From an uncultured virus (IMG/VR IMGVR_UViG_3300042988_001414) (Duplodnaviria; Heunggongvirae; Uroviricota; Caudoviricetes): a stretch of DNA of 64,000 nucleotides. Numbering within the stretch: position 1 is the stretch's first letter; every line of letters starts with the position of its first letter. The notes under the pieces were generated by a model. That model did not search any database. It was not told the DNA's origin and saw only the letters and a list, made by a program, of their open reading frames with translations. A program made the translations under genes and the position numbers. The DNA is taken from IMG/VR virus record IMGVR_UViG_3300042988_001414; one strand, given 5' to 3'. Below, piece by piece: positions 29,510-44,809 of the stretch.

Positions 29510-30640
29510 ATGGACATCACCGTATCGAAGAAAGAGCTACTGAAGGTCGCCGCACGCATGGCCGGCATCGCGGAGCGCAAGAGCACCATGCCGATGCTCG
29601 CCAGCGTGCTCTTGGTCGCTAGGGACCAGGAGTTGGAGCTCGCCGCAACCGACCTCTATCTTGCCCTGCGCGGGACGATTCCCGTCGCGGAGTCCCGCCA
29701 AAGCGGAAGCGTCGCGATTGGTGCGAAGGACTTCGTCGACCGCATCAAGATGCTCCCAGACGGACCTGTTCGTCTGACGGCGGACGAGAGATCGCTGACG
29801 ATCAAGGGCGGAGGCGCACGCAAGTTCACCATGCGCGGCTTCGGCGGCGGCGACTTCCCGCCGATCCCAGCGCCTGATGAGCACGCCCAGGTGATCATGA
29901 TCGACGCGACGGCGCTCGTGGCGTTGATCGAGACAACGAGCTTCGCGGTGAGCCCAGACGAGACGCGCCCGCACATCAACTCGGCACTGATCGAGTGGAA
30001 GGGGCAGTCCCTCCGCATGGTGGCAACGGACGGACACCGTCTTGCTTATGCCGCGCGGCAGGTGGCAGGGACGGCGGAGTCATCGATCTTGATCCCACTC
30101 AAGGCACTTCGAGAGGTACGGCAGCTCGCGGAGGACGTTGCAGCGTCGGCTGGGGAGCAAGTCATCAAGCTGGTGACCTCATGGAGACATGCCTTCCTGA
30201 CAGCGAATGCGGCGCAGTCGATGACGTTCGGGCTCAAGATCGTGGAGGCTGTCTTCCCTCCGTACGAGCAAGTGATTCCGACCGCGAACACCCATCGTGC
30301 ACGCGCGCCACGCGTGCAACTGCTCGACGCCGTCCGTGCGGTGGCCATCGCCGCCCCAGACAGAACAGGTGCACTGAGGTTCGAATTCTCAAACGGTCGC
30401 CTGCTCATCACTGGGGCCGATGCCGACTCAGGTGATGGCGAGGACGAGGTTTCGGTCGACTACGTGGGTCCGAATATCGCGCTTGGATTCAACTCGCGCT
30501 ACATCGCCGAGGCGCTTGGCGCACTAGACGCCGATGACGTGGAGCTTGCCTTCAACGGTGAGCTCGACCCCATCGTTCTACGACCACTTGGTGAGTGCGC
30601 GACCGACGCGATCCACGTCGTGATGCCGATGCGAGTGTGA
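29510..30640 (+). CDS. dnaN: DNA polymerase III beta clamp
   Basis: ATDL, DETRPHIN, VATDGHRLA, FPPYEQVIP, GFNSRY, VVMPMRV. Confidence 0.95.
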   Translation: MDITVSKKELLKVAARMAGIAERKSTMPMLASVLLVARDQELELAATDLYLALRGTIPVAESRQSGSVAIGAKDFVDRIKMLPDGPVRLTADERSLTIKGGGARKFTMRGFGGGDFPPIPAPDEHAQVIMIDATALVALIETTSFAVSPDETRPHINSALIEWKGQSLRMVATDGHRLAYAARQVAGTAESSILIPLKALREVRQLAEDVAASAGEQVIKLVTSWRHAFLTANAAQSMTFGLKIVEAVFPPYEQVIPTANTHRARAPRVQLLDAVRAVAIAAPDRTGALRFEFSNGRLLITGADADSGDGEDEVSVDYVGPNIALGFNSRYIAEALGALDADDVELAFNGELDPIVLRPLGECATDAIHVVMPMRV

Positions 30641-30659: not shown

Positions 30660-30938
30660 ATGACCGATCGCGTGCGATGTCCATACGAGCCTCAGGCCAA
30701 GCGCGGCGTGTGCGAGCGCAACGGGTGCAATCACTACGCGGCGAACAGAGCGCGCATCTGTCGCTGTTGCCTTGCGCAACTTCCGAGCGAGCTGGCGAAC
30801 AAGCTCTCGCTGATGTGCCAGATGGCGAACGACCTTGCTGTGCTGGATGCGGAGCAAGACAAGGCGCTAGCTACCCTCAACGCAACGGAGCCGCGCAAGG
30901 TCTTCGGTCGGCGATGGAAGCCGACCACCTGGCAATGA
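30660..30938 (+). CDS. Cys-rich hypothetical protein
   Basis: AGGAGG RBS; ORF track. Confidence 0.5.
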   Translation: MTDRVRCPYEPQAKRGVCERNGCNHYAANRARICRCCLAQLPSELANKLSLMCQMANDLAVLDAEQDKALATLNATEPRKVFGRRWKPTTWQ

Positions 30939-30958
30939 AAGAACGAACCGGAGGAACC

Positions 30959-31234
30959 ATGAGCCAATTGAGCAAGGGTATTTCGAACGCAGCGCGCGAC
31001 CACTTCCACGTGGAGGTTGGGAGGCAGCTCCAGGAGATTCGCAAGTCGAAGGGCATGACGTGTCGTGAGCTCGGTGCGAAGACCGGTCTGACTCTGTCAT
31101 CGATCACGCACGCGGAGGCAGGGCAAAGCCTCTCTTTCATCGCCGCGGCCCTCATTGCCAAGGCGCTCGGCGTGACGCTCGCAGAGCTCGTTCCGCCATC
31201 GTCTCTCGAGAGGCCTTGGGAGCGAGCCGGATAG
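30959..31234 (+). CDS. XRE-family HTH regulator
   Basis: LQEIRKSKGMTCRELGAKTGL...IAKALGVTLAEL. Confidence 0.8.
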   Translation: MSQLSKGISNAARDHFHVEVGRQLQEIRKSKGMTCRELGAKTGLTLSSITHAEAGQSLSFIAAALIAKALGVTLAELVPPSSLERPWERAG

Positions 31235-31426
31235 GACTTCGCCGAGTCGCACCCCTCCCCCTCCTGCGATTCGACGGCCCGCTGGCAGACCGGGCAATGT
31301 CTGCCGCCTGACTCACCAGGGAACCATCGCGCTGCAACGCGATGCTTCGAAGCAAGCTGGCAGACCTTGTCCCGCAAGTCTGCAAGAGGGTGGCTGGCGA
31401 TGTCTGCTCGCTCGCCACTCTCGCCT

Positions 31427-31522
31427 GACTCGGTAGCTCAGACGGTAGAGCAGTGATGGCGCTCTTTGTTCACCGGAGCGTCGTCACATGGGTCGCAGGT
31501 TCGAGTCCTGCCCGAGTCACCA
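31427..31522 (+). tRNA. tRNA-like RNA with aberrant extended anticodon arm (no assignable anticodon)
   Basis: Acceptor GACTCGG/CCGAGTC + ACCA; D arm GCTC..GAGC; T arm GCAGG-TTCGAGT-CCTGC; 12-bp stem with 11-nt loop in the anticodon position. Confidence 0.8.
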
Positions 31523-31541
31523 GCGAAAGGTGTATGATGCA

Positions 31542-31751
31542 ATGAACAAGAGACAACGAGTCGAGAAGTACTGGTCGATCTGGAAGCTGAGCGACAGTGG
31601 GGATGACTGGCACCCATACGACGAGGGAATCACGACGCGTCGCAGGGCAGAGGAGGAGCTGCGCGAACTCCTTCAGGATGGCTGGCCGGGGGAAGAATTC
31701 TGCATCGTGCGCACGACGCACGAGCGCGTTCGGGAGAGGAGGAAGAAGTGA
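31542..31751 (+). CDS. Hypothetical protein
   Basis: Coupled small ORF. Confidence 0.45.
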   Translation: MNKRQRVEKYWSIWKLSDSGDDWHPYDEGITTRRRAEEELRELLQDGWPGEEFCIVRTTHERVRERRKK

Positions 31752-34876: not shown

Positions 34877-35319
34877 TGCGCGAGCGGCACCCCTTCGATC
34901 TCGACGTCTGCGCGAAGTGCGAGACGACGTTCCGTCGCCCGACGCCAGAGATGGTGGGATCGCTGGCGATCAAGCCTGCGCTCAAGGTCGTCTACCGCGT
35001 GGAGATTGGCGGCAAAGCAAAGCACTTCCTGAAGCGGAGTTCTGCATATCAGCGATACGCGTGGAAGAGGCTTGCCGAGAAGTACAAGTGCGACGGCTCA
35101 TGCGATGTTGGCCCAGTCAGTCATGAAGACCCGATCAACGAGGGAAGGTGCTACCGCGGAGTCTGCCATCCGTGGCGAACAAACGACGACTACGGGTATC
35201 GTCGAAATCCTAGCAAGCGGTCCGTGGAGTTTCTTCAGCGGCGCTTCGTTCGCTGGTTGCTCTGGCACGATAAGGAGACGCGCAAGCGCGGACGGTCGCC
35301 AATGAGGGTGTCGACATGA
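34873..35319 (+). CDS. Hypothetical protein
   Basis: Coupled ORF. Confidence 0.5.
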   Translation: MMRERHPFDLDVCAKCETTFRRPTPEMVGSLAIKPALKVVYRVEIGGKAKHFLKRSSAYQRYAWKRLAEKYKCDGSCDVGPVSHEDPINEGRCYRGVCHPWRTNDDYGYRRNPSKRSVEFLQRRFVRWLLWHDKETRKRGRSPMRVST

Positions 35320-35660
35320 AGCACCGATCGATTACCACCACCGAACTGACGCCTGAGGCCCGCATCGATGCGGCTCGACGAGCGATCGCCAACGCGATCG
35401 ATGAACTGATCGAGGCGAAGATCGCCATGGGCGTTGCGTCCAGTGAGTGGGTCGACCAGATGACCAGCCCGTTGGGCAAACGTCGACACCTACGACTGGT
35501 CCGCGAAGGCGTCCTCCAGGCCGTGAAGGACGGGCGACGAAGACTCGTGCGGCGGTCGGACATCAACGCGTACCTGGAGTCTCAGCCCGTTCGGACTCCT
35601 CCTAAGCGAGAGGACGACGTCGATGAGATGATGTTGCGAATCGTCGGAGGTCATCGATGA
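35316..35660 (+). CDS. Excisionase-like HTH protein
   Basis: VREGVLQAVKDGRRRLVRRSDINAYL; overlaps the integrase start. Confidence 0.75.
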   Translation: MKHRSITTTELTPEARIDAARRAIANAIDELIEAKIAMGVASSEWVDQMTSPLGKRRHLRLVREGVLQAVKDGRRRLVRRSDINAYLESQPVRTPPKREDDVDEMMLRIVGGHR

Positions 35661-37267
35661 GCGAGCGAGGTGGAATCAGTGTCCGCAAGGGCCGTGTCTA
35701 CGCGCGCATTCGATTCGGCAAGAACGAGCGCTTCGAAGAGCGCCTTCCGTGGGCCACACCGGACGACGAGGGCGCATCGCGAGAGAGATCGCGTCTCATC
35801 GCCGAGCTCGTGGACCGCCTGGTCTCCGCAGGACGGCGCGACCTGGTGAGACGCACGGCGCGAGAGGCGGCGCAAGCGATGTCGCCACGCGTCCTCGACA
35901 CGATTCGGAAGACGATCGATGTCGTCATCAAGACCCCCGCGCCGCGACAAGACCTGACGACCTTCAAGGATGTCGCTGACGCTTGGGTCAGCGGCGAGCT
36001 CAGGAAGCTCCATCCCGATCATGTGCGATCGAAGGCTGACTTCCGACTCGAGGTCGGGCGACTCAAGCGCTACATCTACCCGCACGTGAAGGACGTCCCC
36101 GTCGTCGCGTTCGAGAAAGCTCACGCCGATCTGGTGATGTCGAAGCTCCCGGCGTCGAGAGTGAAGACGCCTGCCGCGCGGCGACACATTGCTCAGATCA
36201 TGAGCCGCGTGATGAACATGTGCGTTCACCCTCTTGGGCTGATCAAGTCATCACCTCTAGGCAAGGGCTTCCTTCCGATCGTGACGAGGTCGAAGCACTA
36301 CACGTGTCTCTTCCCGAAGGAGGAAGCGAAGCTTCTGGGTTGCGAGGAGGTGGACGAGGCGTTCCGACTGTTCATGGGCATCCTCGACCGTGAAGGGATG
36401 CGAATCAGCGAGCTCGCAGACAGCGAGTGGTGGCAGTGGAACCTTGAGGTCGGCACGTTCACCGCAACGAAGACGAAGGGCGGGGACCCTCGGATGTGGG
36501 CTCTGCGGCCGGACGTTGTCCGAGCGATGAGGATTTGGGCCGAGCGCTTCAGCAAGAAGAAGGCGCGCCCCTTCATTGACGTCACACCAACGCTCGAGGC
36601 GAAGAAGAAGCTGGCCAAGCGGCTGCGCGAAGCGCTGGCTCTTGCTGGAGTCCAGCGTCAGGAGTTGTTCCGCTCGACGCAGCACACCGGCATGCTGCGC
36701 GCGCATGATCTCCGGGCCACGTTCGTCACGGTGTCGCTCGCGGAAGGCCGGCCCGAGGCGTGGATCCGAGACCGAACGGCGCACAAGTCCACGATGATGA
36801 TCGACCGGTACAGGCGCACCGCCAGGCAGTTCGAGGAACTGAATCTCGGGTCGCTGGTCGACCTTGTCGAAGGCCTAGGGTGGGCGATCTCCTGGGTGAT
36901 CCGCTCCGCGGTGGGGGGTGCTGAGACGTCGGATCGTGCTGTTGTTACGAGCAGTTCCGGCGCAGGGATTCGAACCCCGATAGGAGGATCCAAAATCCGC
37001 TCAGGGCATGATCACGAGCCGCGTCAGGCCCAGAATGACGTGGTTTTCGATGCAGGTGACGACCCGCAAGAGCAGGGATCACCCACCCGTCACCCAGGGG
37101 TCAGGCGCCTCCCGGCGGACGTCCAGGAGTACGTCGCGGGTCAGCTTGCCGAGGCCTACCGGGAGGCCATTCGAGGCGAGCAGGTTGCGACGCTGCGACC
37201 TCTCGCACGCGCCGCGACTGCAATCGAGCAGGGGCGGACCCCACGACGTCGCCGAGGTGCACGATGA
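35657..37267 (+). CDS. int: Tyrosine integrase with attP inside its C-terminal region
   Basis: GMRISEL, TKTK, HDLRATF, TAHKS...DRY. Confidence 0.9.
   Translation: MSERGGISVRKGRVYARIRFGKNERFEERLPWATPDDEGASRERSRLIAELVDRLVSAGRRDLVRRTAREAAQAMSPRVLDTIRKTIDVVIKTPAPRQDLTTFKDVADAWVSGELRKLHPDHVRSKADFRLEVGRLKRYIYPHVKDVPVVAFEKAHADLVMSKLPASRVKTPAARRHIAQIMSRVMNMCVHPLGLIKSSPLGKGFLPIVTRSKHYTCLFPKEEAKLLGCEEVDEAFRLFMGILDREGMRISELADSEWWQWNLEVGTFTATKTKGGDPRMWALRPDVVRAMRIWAERFSKKKARPFIDVTPTLEAKKKLAKRLREALALAGVQRQELFRSTQHTGMLRAHDLRATFVTVSLAEGRPEAWIRDRTAHKSTMMIDRYRRTARQFEELNLGSLVDLVEGLGWAISWVIRSAVGGAETSDRAVVTSSSGAGIRTPIGGSKIRSGHDHEPRQAQNDVVFDAGDDPQEQGSPTRHPGVRRLPADVQEYVAGQLAEAYREAIRGEQVATLRPLARAATAIEQGRTPRRRRGAR
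36954..36998 (-). other. attP core: 3' half of tRNA-Gln(TTG)
   Basis: Minus strand GGA-TTTTGGA-TCCTC CTAT CGGGG-TTCGAAT-CCCTG CGCCGGA A; no 5' half present. Confidence 0.8.
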
Positions 37268-40141: not shown

Positions 40142-40907
40142 GACGTCCGCTGCGTGGCGAGCTCGCTGCGAACGCTGGCTTCCGAGTCGGGTAGAGCCTG
40201 TCCAAATCCGCGTGTGGCTGCGAGCTCCGCTCGCATGGGACCCCTACGACGGAATCACGATCGAGGGCGCGCTACAGTCCGTGGTCGTTACGAGGGAGTC
40301 ATCGCGACTTCCCGACGACGCGTTCGATGGGGCACCGAGTGACTTCTTCGCTGACGTCCCGATCCCAATCGCCGATCAGGAGGTCTACGGCATCAAGATC
40401 GCCCTCGTCTCGTGGGCGATCCCAGCCACCAACATCGAGACCGTTCGACGCTTGCGCCGTCGGTCCAGAGTGGACCTGTTCCGACCCGCCGGAGGTCGAG
40501 GACTCTTGGTCGTGTCCGGTGGATCGTTCAAAAATACTGACGTACCTGTGTCCACGATGACGACTCCGTTCGTTGACTTCTTCGCGCACGGTGACGCCGA
40601 GAAGATCGCTGACCTTGCCCGAGACCTCGGATCTCTTGGTCGTGCACGTGGCGGAGGGCTTGGAGCCATCCACGGTGTGGAGGTCGACACCGGATGCCCG
40701 ATGCGCCACCCGTTGAGTCATCACCGCAGACCTCAGCGCACCATCCCGGTGCTCGATGGGACCAACGCCGCAGATCGATTTGAGGTCGGATCGTACGAGG
40801 TCCGCGAGCGTCAGCTCCGCGCGCCATACTGGCACCTCGGCGGACCTCGAGCGCTCTGCGCGGTTCCGACACCAGTCGCATTCACGGAGGACGCATGCGC
40901 CGCTTGA
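40128..40907 (+). CDS. csf3: Csf3 (Cas5-like)
   Basis: IRVWLRAP..., GSFK, FFAHGDAEKI, LGRARGGGLGAI, RTIP, RAPYWH. Confidence 0.8.
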   Translation: MTWVETSAAWRARCERWLPSRVEPVQIRVWLRAPLAWDPYDGITIEGALQSVVVTRESSRLPDDAFDGAPSDFFADVPIPIADQEVYGIKIALVSWAIPATNIETVRRLRRRSRVDLFRPAGGRGLLVVSGGSFKNTDVPVSTMTTPFVDFFAHGDAEKIADLARDLGSLGRARGGGLGAIHGVEVDTGCPMRHPLSHHRRPQRTIPVLDGTNAADRFEVGSYEVRERQLRAPYWHLGGPRALCAVPTPVAFTEDACAA

Positions 40908-41530
40908 TACGTGGTCCGCTTGAGCAACGGCTCGCGGTGGCGGACCTTACGACGCCCGAAGGACTGGCCACGTTCAGAGGCCTTCTCGAGGGTCTCTCGG
41001 TCTCGGTCGTCTACAGCGACCCGCCGTGGAACCCTGGGAATGAGAAATACTGGCGACGCTACGCCGGGGCGAGTGTGCCGACGAGCTACGGCAAGCTGCT
41101 CGACGGTTGGATCGCGTGCGTTGTGGCCTGCCGCCCGGAGCACGTCTTCGTCGAGCAGTCAGTCAACCAAGCTCACAAGGCCATGCTGGTCGACGCGATC
41201 GGCCGGTGCCCAGCGTGGTCGCTGCCGCTGATTGAAGAGTGGGTCGTTGAGTACGGATCTCCCAAGAGGCCGAACGCGCTCCTCCACTTCGGCCGCAACA
41301 AGAGCACCACCGATCCTTCGGGGATGTCTGGCGTCACGATGACGAGGACGGCGCTGATGGGCATCGACATCCCATCCCGCACCGCCATCGCCGATCCGTG
41401 CATGGGGCTTGGGACTACCTCACGCGTAGCTCACATGTTGGAGACCTCGTGCGTCGGGACTGAGTTGAACGAGAAGCGTCTTGATGTGACGATCGACCGA
41501 CTGCGGAAGATGGGGTACGTGGAGGCATGA
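40895..41530 (+). CDS. Amino-methyltransferase-like (DPPW) protein
   Basis: VVYSDPPW; ADPCMGLGTT; GTELNEKR. Confidence 0.75.
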   Translation: MRRLIRGPLEQRLAVADLTTPEGLATFRGLLEGLSVSVVYSDPPWNPGNEKYWRRYAGASVPTSYGKLLDGWIACVVACRPEHVFVEQSVNQAHKAMLVDAIGRCPAWSLPLIEEWVVEYGSPKRPNALLHFGRNKSTTDPSGMSGVTMTRTALMGIDIPSRTAIADPCMGLGTTSRVAHMLETSCVGTELNEKRLDVTIDRLRKMGYVEA

Positions 41531-42390
41531 TCGCGCTCGGGCTCTCGGCTGAGGAGAAACGCCGTGCGGTGACGGACTACTGCGCCGAGCACCGCATCCA
41601 GCGCGTGGTCGCGTTGAGCCCGTCGAAGTACCGCGTGGTGTTCGACCACGACCAGGTGCGCCACACGGAGTGGGCGGAGATCATCCAGTACAAGCACTTC
41701 TACCCAATCCTCCAGGAGACCGACCGGCACACGCTGGTCGTCGTCAACGAGTGCCTGAGGACGAGCGACCGAAACTGCCTCACGTACAACTGCATCCGGC
41801 ACTTCCTCAACCAAACGCCACACGCCATCGTGTTTCAGCGGTTCCCCATTCTCGAGACGTTCGATGACGTGATGATCCTGGTCGACTTCGCGACCAATAG
41901 CCGATGGAAGCGTGACCGCTTCGATCGCCGCTTTCTCGATGGTGTCGATGTTCGAGGCACCGTCCAGCCACTGACTCTTGAGCGCGTGCACGTGCCGACG
42001 TCAGACCAAGATCATGCGGCCTACGCCAAGGCACGCGCCGAGCTCTTCGCCAACATCGGCGCTCGCGACCCGCACACGATCCCGCGCACGCTGCACCTCT
42101 TGTCCGGCAAAGCCAAGCTCCGTGTCGTGAATCCTGGCGCGCGCTACGTCGGTCGGAACAACCGCTTCTCACTCGAGAACCTGGTCACGTTCGACGAAGA
42201 GTCGTTCGGTGGGACCGAGACGGTCTTCGAGTTCTGCCACGGCATGCTGGCCTTCAGCGACTTCGTCGCGCTCTCCGGCCAGACCAAGGTGACCGCACTC
42301 GTCTCCGAACTGAAGGTCGACCGGTGGTACGCGGAACGCGCCGAGACATGGATGAAGGAGGTGGCTCGTGCCTACGCAGCGCTACTCTGA
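41527..42390 (+). CDS. Hypothetical protein, degenerate helicase-like
   Basis: LVVVNECLR resembles a decayed Walker B; no Walker A seen. Confidence 0.55.
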   Translation: MIALGLSAEEKRRAVTDYCAEHRIQRVVALSPSKYRVVFDHDQVRHTEWAEIIQYKHFYPILQETDRHTLVVVNECLRTSDRNCLTYNCIRHFLNQTPHAIVFQRFPILETFDDVMILVDFATNSRWKRDRFDRRFLDGVDVRGTVQPLTLERVHVPTSDQDHAAYAKARAELFANIGARDPHTIPRTLHLLSGKAKLRVVNPGARYVGRNNRFSLENLVTFDEESFGGTETVFEFCHGMLAFSDFVALSGQTKVTALVSELKVDRWYAERAETWMKEVARAYAALL

Positions 42391-43495
42391 CGTTGACGTT
42401 CTGAGCGCCGCACGAAAGCGCATGGCGTTCATCTTCGACTCGTTCTCGGAGATCATCGTTTCGATCTCCGGTGGGAAGGATTCCACGGTGCTCGCTCATA
42501 TTGCGTTGCAAGAGGCGAAGCGCCGCGACCGACGCGTTGGCTTCTTCTTCCTCGATGAGGAGGTCTGCTACCAGAGCAGCGTCGACCAGGTCGAGTACCT
42601 GATGACCCTCGAGCCAGCGCACACCAAGCCGCTCTGGCTTCAGGTGCCGTTTTTCCTGACCAACGCGACCAGCCTCACCGAGGGCCAGCTCCAATGCTGG
42701 GAGCCTGGCAAGCACAAGGTGTGGATGCGATCCAAGCGAGCCGGATCGATCCAGCACAAGCCGTGGGACGTGGCGACCGAGACCGTGCGCAATCGCGCCA
42801 AGGGCTTCGGCTTCTACGATGCGATCGAGAACTTCGAGCGCAGCTTCTCCGGCGCTGCCTTCCTTGTTGGCTTGCGTGCCGCCGGCGAGTCGCCGAACCG
42901 TTGGCGCGCGGTGGTGAAGAACCCCGTGACGGTCGGCGGAGAGACGACCTACTGGGGCACTCGCAAGGGCGAGAACACTGCGCTCTATCCGATCTACGAC
43001 TGGAACTTCCACGACGTGTGGCGCTACATCCACGAGCACGGCGTGCGCTACTCGAAGATCTACGACTTCCAGTTTCGCAAGGGGTACCCGATCCACGAGA
43101 TGCGTGTGAGCTCGCTCATTCACGAGCGTTCGTTCAAGAGCATCTGTGACCTCCCCGAATTCGAGCCGAAGACGTACGCTCGACTGCTGAAGCGCATCAA
43201 GGGGATCGCGCTCGCACAAGAGACGGGCAAGTCTGCCAAGCTGTTTGCTGCGCGGAAGCTTCCTCACCAGCACGCGACGTGGGCAGCGTACCGGGACTTC
43301 CTCCTTGCGACGCATCCGAGTCAGGAGCACGCCGCCATGTTTCGAGCGCGATTCGCTCGCCATCTCGACAACGAGTTCGTGGCGCGCCAGCAATGCCGGC
43401 AGCTGCTTCTCAACGACTACGAGAACAACCTTCCCATCACCAACGACGAAGACCCGCGGGCGAAGTTGCTGCGGTACTACGAGGGCGTCCTATGA
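42368..43495 (+). CDS. IbrA-like PAPS-reductase/PP-loop protein
   Basis: VSISGGKDS, FLDEE, VGLRAAGESPNR, YPIYDW...DVW, MRVS. Confidence 0.85.
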   Translation: MPTQRYSDVDVLSAARKRMAFIFDSFSEIIVSISGGKDSTVLAHIALQEAKRRDRRVGFFFLDEEVCYQSSVDQVEYLMTLEPAHTKPLWLQVPFFLTNATSLTEGQLQCWEPGKHKVWMRSKRAGSIQHKPWDVATETVRNRAKGFGFYDAIENFERSFSGAAFLVGLRAAGESPNRWRAVVKNPVTVGGETTYWGTRKGENTALYPIYDWNFHDVWRYIHEHGVRYSKIYDFQFRKGYPIHEMRVSSLIHERSFKSICDLPEFEPKTYARLLKRIKGIALAQETGKSAKLFAARKLPHQHATWAAYRDFLLATHPSQEHAAMFRARFARHLDNEFVARQQCRQLLLNDYENNLPITNDEDPRAKLLRYYEGVL

Positions 43496-44004
43496 AGATC
43501 TCGATGCCGTGCCTGGAGACGAAGCTCGTGCCACGCGACTCGATCGTGGCCAACAACTACAACCCGAATTTCGTTTCACCCGACAAGATGGACCTTCTTC
43601 GACAGAGCATCGTCGACAACGGGTTCTGCTTCCCCATCGTGACGATCTGGGACGATGACCTCGAGAAGTACGTCATCGTCGATGGCTTCCACCGCTTCAC
43701 GATCTGCTCTCCCGAGTGGCTGGACATCGAGCTGGTGCCCGTCGTCGTCCTTGAGCACGACATCACCAAGCGGCTCGTTGCGACGGTCCAGTTCAATAAG
43801 GCTCGTGGAACGCACGCCGTGGATTTGGATGCGGACCTCATTCGAACGCTCATCCAACAAGGCATGACCGATGAGCAGGTCTCGACGCATCTCGGGATCG
43901 ATCTCGACACCGTGCACCGGTACAAGCAGGTCAGCGGCGTCGCATCGCTCTTCGCAAACGTCGAGTACTCCGCCAGCTGGTCGATGGTCGAGGATGCCGG
44001 CTGA
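43492..44004 (+). CDS. IbrB-like ParB/Srx-domain protein
   Basis: ANNYNPN, SIVDNGF, IVDGFHR, NKARGTH. Confidence 0.85.
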   Translation: MKISMPCLETKLVPRDSIVANNYNPNFVSPDKMDLLRQSIVDNGFCFPIVTIWDDDLEKYVIVDGFHRFTICSPEWLDIELVPVVVLEHDITKRLVATVQFNKARGTHAVDLDADLIRTLIQQGMTDEQVSTHLGIDLDTVHRYKQVSGVASLFANVEYSASWSMVEDAG

Positions 44005-44809
44005 GCCGCTCCTCCGACCGGAGGACGACGCGGAGTGGTCGCGCTGGCAGATCATCGCTCGCCAGCACGCCCGCACACGCAAGCACGCATCTCGTGTCGA
44101 CCGCGCCAAGCGCATCGTCGACGAATGCCTCACGCGAGCGCCCAACGCCGCGGTGATGTGGTCCGGAGGGAAGGACTCGACCGTGTTGACTCATCTCGTA
44201 TGCGTCGAGATGGGCCGAGCACTTCCAGTGTTCAGCGAGAAGGACGATCTCGACTTCCCCGGCGAACGCGCGTACGTCGAGACGTGGGCCGCACGTTGGA
44301 AGATCGATCTCCGCGTGCTGGTACCTGACGTGTCGCCGCTGGCGTGGGTTGAGGCTCACCGCGCCGAGCTCGTGGCGGGAGACGATCTCCACTCACGCGC
44401 CGCTGGCCTGAGCAAGGCTTGCTTCTACGAGGTGGTCGAGCGCGCCACCGAGACCTTCGACGCGGTCCTCTTGGGGCTTCGGTCTGAGGAGAGCCGCGGG
44501 CGGCGAATGAACCGCGCGCTGCGCGGACCGACGTACCAGAAGACGAGCGGCCAGTGGGTGTGCTCGCCGCTGGTCGACTGGTCTGGGATCGACGTGATGG
44601 CGTACCTCGCCGCGAGAGACATCGACCCGTTGCCGCTCTATCGGTGCATCGCGTTCGCGCACGCGCGCGAGCCGTGGAGAGTCCGCAAGTCGTGGTGGCT
44701 CCCAGGTCAGAGCTCGAATCACGGGCAGATGGCGTGGCTCCGGCACTACTGGCCATCACTCTACGAACTCGCCCGCGAGCTAGTCATCGGTGCCCAGCGG
44801 ATGTCGTGA
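43994..44809 (+). CDS. CysH-like PAPS reductase family protein (type IV-B associated)
   Basis: MWSGGKDS, LGLRSEESRGR, PLVDWSGIDVMAY. Confidence 0.85.
   Translation: MPAEPLLRPEDDAEWSRWQIIARQHARTRKHASRVDRAKRIVDECLTRAPNAAVMWSGGKDSTVLTHLVCVEMGRALPVFSEKDDLDFPGERAYVETWAARWKIDLRVLVPDVSPLAWVEAHRAELVAGDDLHSRAAGLSKACFYEVVERATETFDAVLLGLRSEESRGRRMNRALRGPTYQKTSGQWVCSPLVDWSGIDVMAYLAARDIDPLPLYRCIAFAHAREPWRVRKSWWLPGQSSNHGQMAWLRHYWPSLYELARELVIGAQRMS

Follow-up and report, generated by a model that had tools for sequence, protein, structure and literature searches.

The 64-kilobase (kb) stretch of DNA analysed here (the window; IMG/VR record IMGVR_UViG_3300042988_001414) comes from an uncultured freshwater phage. 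It contains one tRNA-shaped gene, in which a long helix stands in place of the anticodon arm. A first-pass annotation, made from the letters of the window, had described this gene and suggested running ARAGORN and Infernal on it. Searching the whole window, ARAGORN reports a single gene, at 31427-31522 (+), labels it 'tRNA-???' and leaves its amino acid unassigned. Coordinates below are positions in the window and refer to the + strand unless stated. The gene and its parts, with lengths in nucleotides (nt) and base pairs (bp), are the following.

31427..31522, +: tRNA-shaped gene, 96 nt with encoded CCA (ARAGORN, Rfam RF00005, cloverleaf fold)
31427-31433 / 31512-31518, +: acceptor stem GACTCGG/CCGAGTC, 7/7 pairs (read from the sequence)
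31436-31451, +: D arm, stem GCTC/GAGC, 4/4 pairs (read from the sequence)
31453..31487, +: long arm in the anticodon position, bulge-free helix of 12-13 bp (fold)
31488..31494, +: variable region ATGGGTC, 7 nt, versus the 5-nt GGGTC of tRNA-Lys genes with the same body
31495-31511, +: T arm, stem GCAGG/CCTGC, 5/5 pairs (read from the sequence)
31519, +: discriminator A73
31520-31522, +: encoded CCA

Anatomy of the tRNA-shaped RNA

The Rfam tRNA family RF00005 matches positions 31427-31519 with 50.2 bits (gathering score 29, E-value 8.7e-8, model positions 1-71), and Infernal bridges 11 central positions of the anticodon-hairpin model with a 31-nt local end. The minimum-energy fold of the whole gene is a cloverleaf of -45.9 kcal/mol (z-score -4.64), an energy equalled by none of 200 shuffles. 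Conserved tRNA positions U8, A14, G15, G18, G19, A21, T54-T55-C56 and A58 can all be read in the sequence. Hence, the RNA has the score, the short stems and the conserved positions of a tRNA, and lacks the 5-bp stem and the 7-nt loop with U33 and a purine at position 37. In their place, GTGATGGCGCTC pairs with GAGCGTCGTCAC over 12 pairs, including two G.U and no mismatch, and closes the loop TTTGTTCACCG. A 13th U.G pair is optional; if formed, the loop spans 31466-31474 (9 nt), and if left open, 31465-31475 (11 nt). Folded alone, the long arm reaches -19.6 kcal/mol (z-score -5.19), and 0 of 200 shuffles are equally good. The coordinates and the anatomy of a tRNA-like RNA with a 12-bp arm, as first annotated, are therefore borne out by ARAGORN, Rfam, folding and direct reading.

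The body of this RNA is, by its sequence, of the lysine-tRNA type. Exact matches to its acceptor strand and D arm occur at five IMG/VR loci, and all five are ordinary 74-nt tRNA-Lys genes, with the anticodon UUU in four and CUU in one; their variable loop is GGGTC. In an alignment with two of these genes, the window gene is set apart only by about 20 additional nt, all of them in the anticodon arm. The assignment follows from these two observations. In detail, the window RNA and canonical tRNA-Lys have identical acceptor and D stems, A73, the GGGTC core of the variable region and the same type of T arm. However, canonical tRNA-Lys has a 5-bp anticodon stem, a 7-nt loop with UUU or CUU, and decodes. 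In the window RNA no such anticodon stands in the normal position; the long-arm loop has a UUU run at its 5' edge, shifted by 7-8 pairs. With 12-13 pairs and without such a loop, this RNA cannot replace a destroyed tRNA-Lys.

In the absence of a usable anticodon loop, the RNA is probably unable to read codons. Some tRNAs are charged independently of the anticodon, through marks such as G3.U70, G-1 or a long variable arm. Direct reading of the window RNA gives C-G for the pair 3-70, T at position -1 and no long variable arm. Lysine identity is carried by the anticodon triplet together with A73, according to excerpts of PMC9976931. Since that triplet is needed and the anticodon-independent marks are missing, efficient charging with lysine is unlikely, as is the aminoacyl-donor role that the first-pass annotation had listed. 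Its suggestion of a stringent-response modulator is likewise unlikely: that role requires codon pairing in the A site, which the lengthened arm should block.

Copies of the RNA in other freshwater phages

Apart from X1 and X2, two sequencing runs from which the window DNA probably originates, diverged copies of the gene occur in two freshwater sequencing runs from two other studies (X3 and X4), on one short contig each. Their extent and their differences from the window are listed below.

X3, 31422-31567: stretch covered
X4, 31445-31542: stretch covered
X3, 31471 C>A and 31472 A>G: both in the loop
X3, 31487 C>T: stem pair G27-C61 becomes G.U
X3, 2 nt missing at 31492: variable region becomes 5 nt
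X3 and X4, 31503 G>A: T-loop purine, identical change in both
X3 and X4, 4 nt missing at 31520: no encoded CCA in either
X4, extra T after 31459: 5' strand of the arm
X4, 3 nt missing at 31470: loop
X4, 31477 A>C: one pair broken

Once rebuilt and folded, both RNAs form a cloverleaf. The X3 RNA (-44.1 kcal/mol) has a 13-pair arm, and the X4 RNA (-38.6 kcal/mol) a 12-pair arm with one bulge and one mismatch. The first-pass annotation had made its reading depend in part on homologues keeping the long stem, and X3 and X4 keep it. Five distinct substitutions fall inside the RNA: three are in loops, one keeps its pair and one breaks it. It is in the loop that the copies vary most. On the other hand, the CCA end noted at first holds for the window RNA, where it is encoded, and is not conserved in the relatives. 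The flanking pieces of X4 differ from the window at between 3 of 170 nt and 23 of 173 nt, and one X4 contig joins 31304 directly to 31422, without the 117-nt segment 31305-31421.

Beyond these two runs, searches of sequence collections returned little. Among isolate phages, blastn with the RNA finds only seven records, all of them a 31-nt T-arm/acceptor match to an Erwinia phage tRNA-Asn, and the 5 kb around the gene find no match. Among plasmids, two records give generic T-arm matches only, and the one examined is a tRNA-Met. Exact or gapped patterns of the arm have no match in IMG/VR, and two patterns have none in JGI metagenome contigs, the first of which demanded the CCA that the relatives lack; such scans depend on exact anchors, so that diverged copies can escape them. 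At the eight IMG/VR loci that encode relatives of the phage's beta clamp, DnaN (27-40% identity), ARAGORN and Rfam find no tRNA gene, and no relative of the upstream helix-turn-helix (HTH) protein was found in IMG/VR. The nearest record, G001, does not cover 22-41 kb of the window.

Interpretation of the RNA and rival explanations

With moderate confidence, we interpret the gene as encoding a maintained, non-decoding and probably uncharged tRNA-shaped RNA that is cut out by tRNA-processing enzymes. What is observed is the anatomy, a body of lysine type, an anticodon position without a usable loop, and a fold that two relatives retain. The RNA would in addition be expressed, processed and stable, and it may act in trans, for example by titrating a protein that binds tRNAs or tRNA-Lys. 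The first-pass annotation had proposed a non-decoding tRNA mimic; this is partly supported, in that the anatomy fits a mimic (intact core, no 7-nt loop, helix kept in two relatives), and the roles that it listed are putative, some of them unlikely.

The following course of events can be envisaged. A gene derived from a lysine tRNA would have had its 7-nt anticodon loop swapped for about 7-8 more pairs and a small loop. It would be transcribed from the + strand together with the neighbouring genes. RNase P would recognise the intact acceptor/T-arm half and cut at 31427, tRNA 3'-end enzymes would trim the other end, and CCA would be added where it is not encoded. Such processing would sever the message of the HTH regulator from the downstream small open reading frames (ORFs) and free a stable RNA of 93-96 nt. 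The long, rigid arm would bar this RNA from the decoding site of the ribosome and from enzymes that read the anticodon, and would leave the 'top half' of the tRNA exposed.

The pairing pattern indicates on which molecule the arm is constrained. All three non-Watson-Crick pairs of the arm are G.U on the + strand and A-C on the - strand, and the - strand arm folds with -9.8 kcal/mol (z-score -1.64) versus -19.6 kcal/mol (z-score -5.19) for the + strand. The X3 stem change, 31487 C>T, adds a fourth G.U. If every mismatch arose by a transition, the odds of all of them being of the tolerated kind are about 1 in 8 with three and about 1 in 16 with four. Together with the half-site, which does not recur in the window beyond chance, this pattern favours an RNA made from the + strand over a protein-binding DNA palindrome or a repeated palindromic element, and the constraint looks like one on the RNA.

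Phages are already known to encode RNAs of this general kind. By analogy, the window RNA appears closest to the tRNA-like stable RNAs of T5 and T4, a loose kind without a curated family, with which it shares its phage origin, a tRNA-type acceptor and T arm and a long non-decoding arm but not a location in a tRNA gene cluster. T5 RNA1 (misc_RNA rna1, AY543070.1 30501-30644) is annotated as 'tRNA-like stable RNA with unknown functions'. Like the window RNA, it is phage-encoded and, by annotation, non-decoding, and in its modelled fold a long structured arm occupies the anticodon position, beside an acceptor stem, a D arm and a T arm. It differs in its size (144 versus 96 nt), in an extra arm and in its long arm, which is branched and bulged. 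The Rfam tRNA model gives it 24 bits, less than the gathering score and less than the 50.2 bits of the window RNA, and its fold is unexceptional (z-score -1.78). T5 RNA1 lies inside a tRNA gene cluster, whereas the window RNA is alone in its phage. T4 RNA C (species 1 RNA, NC_000866.4 70908-71046), grouped here with T4 RNA D, another small stable phage RNA, has a tRNA-type T arm and long hairpins, and sits at the end of the T4 tRNA cluster. Unlike the window RNA, which forms a full cloverleaf, it has no recognisable D arm or cloverleaf, and apart from a 17.5-bit match to tRNA-Sec, no tRNA model matches it at E <= 1. The roles of RNA C and RNA D are described as still unknown in parts of PMC3014915 and PMC9697503.

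Two further designs were compared. In the tRNA scaffolds of Ponchon and Dardel, the acceptor, D and T arms are likewise kept and a hairpin takes the place of the anticodon stem-loop; these scaffolds are man-made and hold a chosen cargo, whereas the insert in the window gene is a natural helix extension with a small variable loop. Transfer-messenger RNA (tmRNA) also carries an acceptor/T-arm module on a long helix that replaces the anticodon arm. It has no normal D arm, a G3.U70 alanine identity, a coding region and more than 300 nt; ARAGORN and Rfam detect no tmRNA here, and the corresponding pair in the window RNA is C-G. Engineered scaffolds of the first design are processed and accumulate in E. 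coli, as described in part of PMC3753655, which shows that a stable RNA can be built in this way. Judged by titles and abstract openings, the literature yielded no phage tRNA with a 12-bp anticodon arm.

The purpose of non-decoding phage RNAs shaped like tRNAs, such as T4 RNA C and D and the T5 stable RNAs, has been unexplained for decades. If maintained, the window RNA would be a new and unusually minimal variant of them, a high-scoring lysine cloverleaf with one clean change, alone in a novel phage. Since it combines a full lysine body with a single simple change, in a phage without other tRNA genes, it would make a convenient minimal object for asking whether such an RNA is processed and stable, whether it is aminoacylated, and whether it protects against nucleases that target tRNA-Lys.

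Several observations weigh against this interpretation. The X3 and X4 contigs have a depth of 2.2 and 3.3, and the differences in them may include errors. The X4 arm carries its bulge and its mismatch. Neither relative shows a compensatory double change in the long arm, so that the covariation looked for after the first-pass annotation did not appear. The loop, the CCA and the length of the variable region differ among the three phages, which gives no support to a sequence-specific function of the loop. X3 has six differences and six gap letters in 146 nt across the RNA, versus 2 in 149 nt farther downstream. Other pieces of the two runs differ by 1-13%, and conservation of the RNA does not clearly exceed that of its flanks. 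Consequently, the fold retained in the relatives lends weak support to maintenance. No wider family was found beyond X3 and X4 in IMG/VR, JGI contigs, isolate phages and plasmids. Finally, a scan between the flanking genes detects no promoter-like site, a consensus scan being weak for a high-GC host, and the one terminator-like site lies on the - strand inside the HTH gene (30883-30864), in a count not above that of shuffles. The missing promoter and + strand terminator fit co-transcription with the neighbours.

Much of this can be read in another way. The gene could be dead, a former working tRNA-Lys disabled by a small self-complementary insertion in its anticodon loop and not yet decayed. 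The phage could have carried it, for instance, to replace host tRNA-Lys destroyed by defence nucleases, and what is left would be an ordinary relic. We regard this as possible, if on the unlikely side. The relatives are only about 4-13% diverged, so that an intact fold proves little, and the points just listed on flanks, X4 arm, variable parts and missing family also count in favour of a dead gene. In addition, the leader upstream bears signs of duplication and deletion, which mark a rearrangement-prone locus. What speaks for maintenance is, first, that the anticodon stem is extended without a bulge: seven chance pairs from a random insert would arise with a frequency of about (6/16)^7, or about 0.001. 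Second, each non-canonical pair is a G.U when read on the transcribed strand, and the single stem substitution of X3 creates a further G.U. Third, every conserved position of the tRNA core is intact. Fourth, the arm motif is not a repeated palindromic element of the window, where its matches (20 versus 14.4 expected, and 33 versus 23.9 expected) are scattered and, apart from the arm itself, all contain 1-2 mismatches.

A more specific function, which we consider doubtful, is that of a decoy. The lysine-tRNA body would be kept to bind a host factor that recognises tRNA-Lys or the top halves of tRNAs, and the rigid arm of 12-13 bp would yield an uncleavable RNA kept out of translation. The factor bound could be a PrrC- or PARIS-type defence nuclease directed at tRNA-Lys, an acceptor-end-modifying toxin, or an immune protein that senses tRNAs. 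As reported in excerpts of PMC11464382, AriB of PARIS makes its cut in tRNA-Lys between position 40 and position 41, and the tRNA-Lys of T5 differs from that of the host in the anticodon stem-loop and so escapes AriB. With tRNA-Lys a known target of defence nucleases, and the anticodon stem the place where AriB cuts, this is the most interesting of the remaining explanations. If correct, it would represent a new kind of counter-defence made of RNA only, unlike the supply of a working tRNA that resists cleavage.

The arm could also act as DNA, although we hold this to be very unlikely. The tyrosine integrase or the HTH regulator would use the 13-9-13 inverted repeat as a site of binding or crossover, for which the dyad inherent in a tRNA anticodon arm would have served as the basis. 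Inverted arms around a short spacer resemble recombinase core sites, tRNA genes are common attachment sites, the phage encodes an excisionase-integrase pair at 35316-37267, and the gene of the HTH regulator lies directly upstream. However, the two arms match at only 10 of 13 positions as DNA, and the three mismatches are exactly those that a + strand RNA tolerates. The C>T change in X3 reduces the DNA symmetry and keeps the RNA pairing. Moreover, the integrase gene is 4 kb away, an attachment site has no need of a complete tRNA 5' half, and the window holds no second copy of a half-site beyond chance. Near the integrase gene, no tRNA fragment of the sort that signals an attachment site was detected at E <= 5.

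The first-pass annotation had also raised a precursor with an excised insert, from which a working tRNA-Lys or tRNA-Asn would emerge; the present analysis speaks strongly against it, and we consider it highly improbable. The loop does carry UUU and GUU, and its UUGUUCA resembles the anticodon loop of tRNA-Asn and begins with UUU. Short introns are found in many tRNA-Asn genes of archaea and giant viruses whose D and T arms are similar. Two pattern scans, which asked for D and T arms of lysine or Asn type at a distance of 28-50 nt, gave 117 and 43 distinct sequences; 92 and 24 of these, for the most part from archaea or giant viruses, were tRNA-Asn(GUU) genes that contain a short insert. These known intron-bearing genes, unlike the window gene, have their intron after position 37 and mostly lack CCA. 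The arm helix of the window gene has no bulges, and hence no bulge-helix-bulge motif of the archaeal and eukaryal intron-bearing precursors. We considered every single contiguous cut that leaves a 17-nt anticodon hairpin and a variable loop of 4 or 5 nt. None of the 14 that keep at least four stem pairs gives U33 with a purine at position 37, the loop being GGCGCTC in all 14; excisions that retain the 7-nt variable region, checked by hand, include no suitable one either. The surplus of about 20 nt is far below the size of a group I intron (about 200 nt or more), and no Rfam intron family reaches its gathering score in the window. To our knowledge, no splicing endonuclease is known in bacteria.

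It is just as improbable that the loop regulates the next ORF in cis by pairing with its start region and controlling translation: UUGUUCA (31467-31473) is the complement of UGAACAA (31543-31549), and the latter overlaps the ATG at 31542, but the pairing is lost in X3 (loop CA to AG) and in X4 (loop TCA deleted) with no change at 31543-31549 in the contigs that cover those positions, and we estimate that a 7-nt match within 100 nt arises by chance in a few per cent of cases.

Look-alike genes and genomic setting

Other genes with tRNA-type D and T arms at an unusual distance were collected by the pattern scans. One scan matched at least 116 loci; among the matches listed, 93 were out of register (initiator-tRNA type) and 23 in the register of the D arm. 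In the two scans described above, the remainder after the tRNA-Asn genes comprises about 44 distinct bacterial or phage sequences, with assorted structures replacing the anticodon arm. Forty of them were folded; inspection by eye reveals no helix of at least 12 pairs free of bulges, and L250 comes nearest, with nine pairs and then an inner hairpin. A few look-alikes end in CCA (for example L283, L224 and L263), and of the 16 viral look-alike loci examined, not one has a flanking protein in common with the window phage.

Among the individual cases, L283 (1491-1589 of a 51-kb IMG/VR contig) is a 99-nt look-alike with encoded CCA from an unrelated phage. Its D loop (AGACGG) and T arm are the same as in the window RNA, and it has no flanking protein in common with the window. 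In the anticodon position, a 7-bp stem surrounds a 25-nt region with the near-palindrome CTGATGTACAACAG, and the acceptor region has an A-G mismatch and an extra G. L224, on a genome contig, carries at 292-384 a 93-nt look-alike that ends in CCA and has a 5-bp stem followed by an inner hairpin in the anticodon position. A normal tRNA-Asn(GUU), at 536-622, follows it at a distance of about 150 nt. In L262 / L082, an IMG/VR contig, a tRNA-Asn(GUU) is followed by a T run, and its intron after position 37 contains the decamer TTTGTTCACC, which is also found in the loop of the long arm in the window. This sharing is probably a coincidence (about 1 in 1000 for the comparisons made). A tRNA-Lys(UUU) of an uncultured betaproteobacterium (L198) has an internal tandem duplication of about 23 nt, with TTAATCCGTTGGTCGCAGGTTCG present twice; small duplications inside tRNA-Lys genes thus do occur.

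A tRNA-like gene recurs in chromosomes of Flavobacteriales (L143, L149, L150, L156, L157, L163, L168, L171, L130, L208, L231 and L234; where named, the genera are Chryseobacterium, Epilithonimonas and Cloacibacterium). Its acceptor, D and T arms are normal; the D and T arms stand 44-47 nt apart, and the stretch between them includes the common core ACTTT(C/T)CGC...GGCA...AAAGTTCCTA. ARAGORN, run on L143 as the only copy, reports a tRNA-Arg(ccg) of 99 nt. That the gene is conserved in different species suggests that it is a non-standard tRNA, or a look-alike, which is being maintained.

In the window, the tRNA-like gene is the only tRNA-type gene of the 64 kb (ARAGORN, Rfam). The features around it are as follows.

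29510-30640: beta clamp (DnaN)
30677..31234, +: Cro/CI-type HTH regulator, 185 amino acids (Pfam HTH_3, 1.1e-9; PHROG transcriptional regulators/repressors)
31235..31426, +: structured leader from the HTH gene to the tRNA-like gene (fold z-score -3.52; direct repeats D2, D6 and D10)
31542..31751, +: ORF of 69 amino acids, no family match in Pfam/NCBIfam
35316-37267: excisionase-integrase pair (tyrosine integrase)

The RNA gene is located inside the 307-nt gap between the HTH gene and the 69-amino-acid ORF, beyond which lie small + strand ORFs without family matches. The ATG of this ORF is 19 nt past the CCA and is preceded by AAAGGTG (31526-31532). Pfam, NCBIfam and PHROG recognise no tRNA-related enzyme, ligase or nuclease family among the neighbouring ORFs.

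Within the leader, the region 31277-31431 consists of two related units, at about 31277-31314 and 31352-31431, each with GCTGGCAGACC, ATGTCTGC and a terminal CGCCTGACTC, a pattern suggestive of a tandem duplication. After the first unit comes ACCAG, and 31305-31319 resembles a fusion of the first five and the last five nucleotides of the tRNA-like gene (plus one). This segment may be the remnant of a deleted first copy of the gene.

Overall, the whole window is phage DNA according to Pfam, PHROG and NCBIfam. It encodes a large terminase, a DnaB-type helicase, a primase and a replication initiator, as well as methyltransferases, a dUTPase, an SbcCD pair, and baseplate and tail genes. Since none of its proteins reaches 35% identity with an entry of the isolate-phage or plasmid collections, the phage is, by sequence, novel; the best protein matches are 28-34% identical and spread over phages of Alphaproteobacteria and plasmids of Actinobacteria. 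It is probably temperate. At 42368-44809, two adjacent genes resemble phosphoadenosine-phosphosulfate reductase (phrog_2302, 1e-78 and 7.6e-17). They adjoin methyltransferase-like genes at 40895-41530, together with which they may form a DNA-modification module of the phage.

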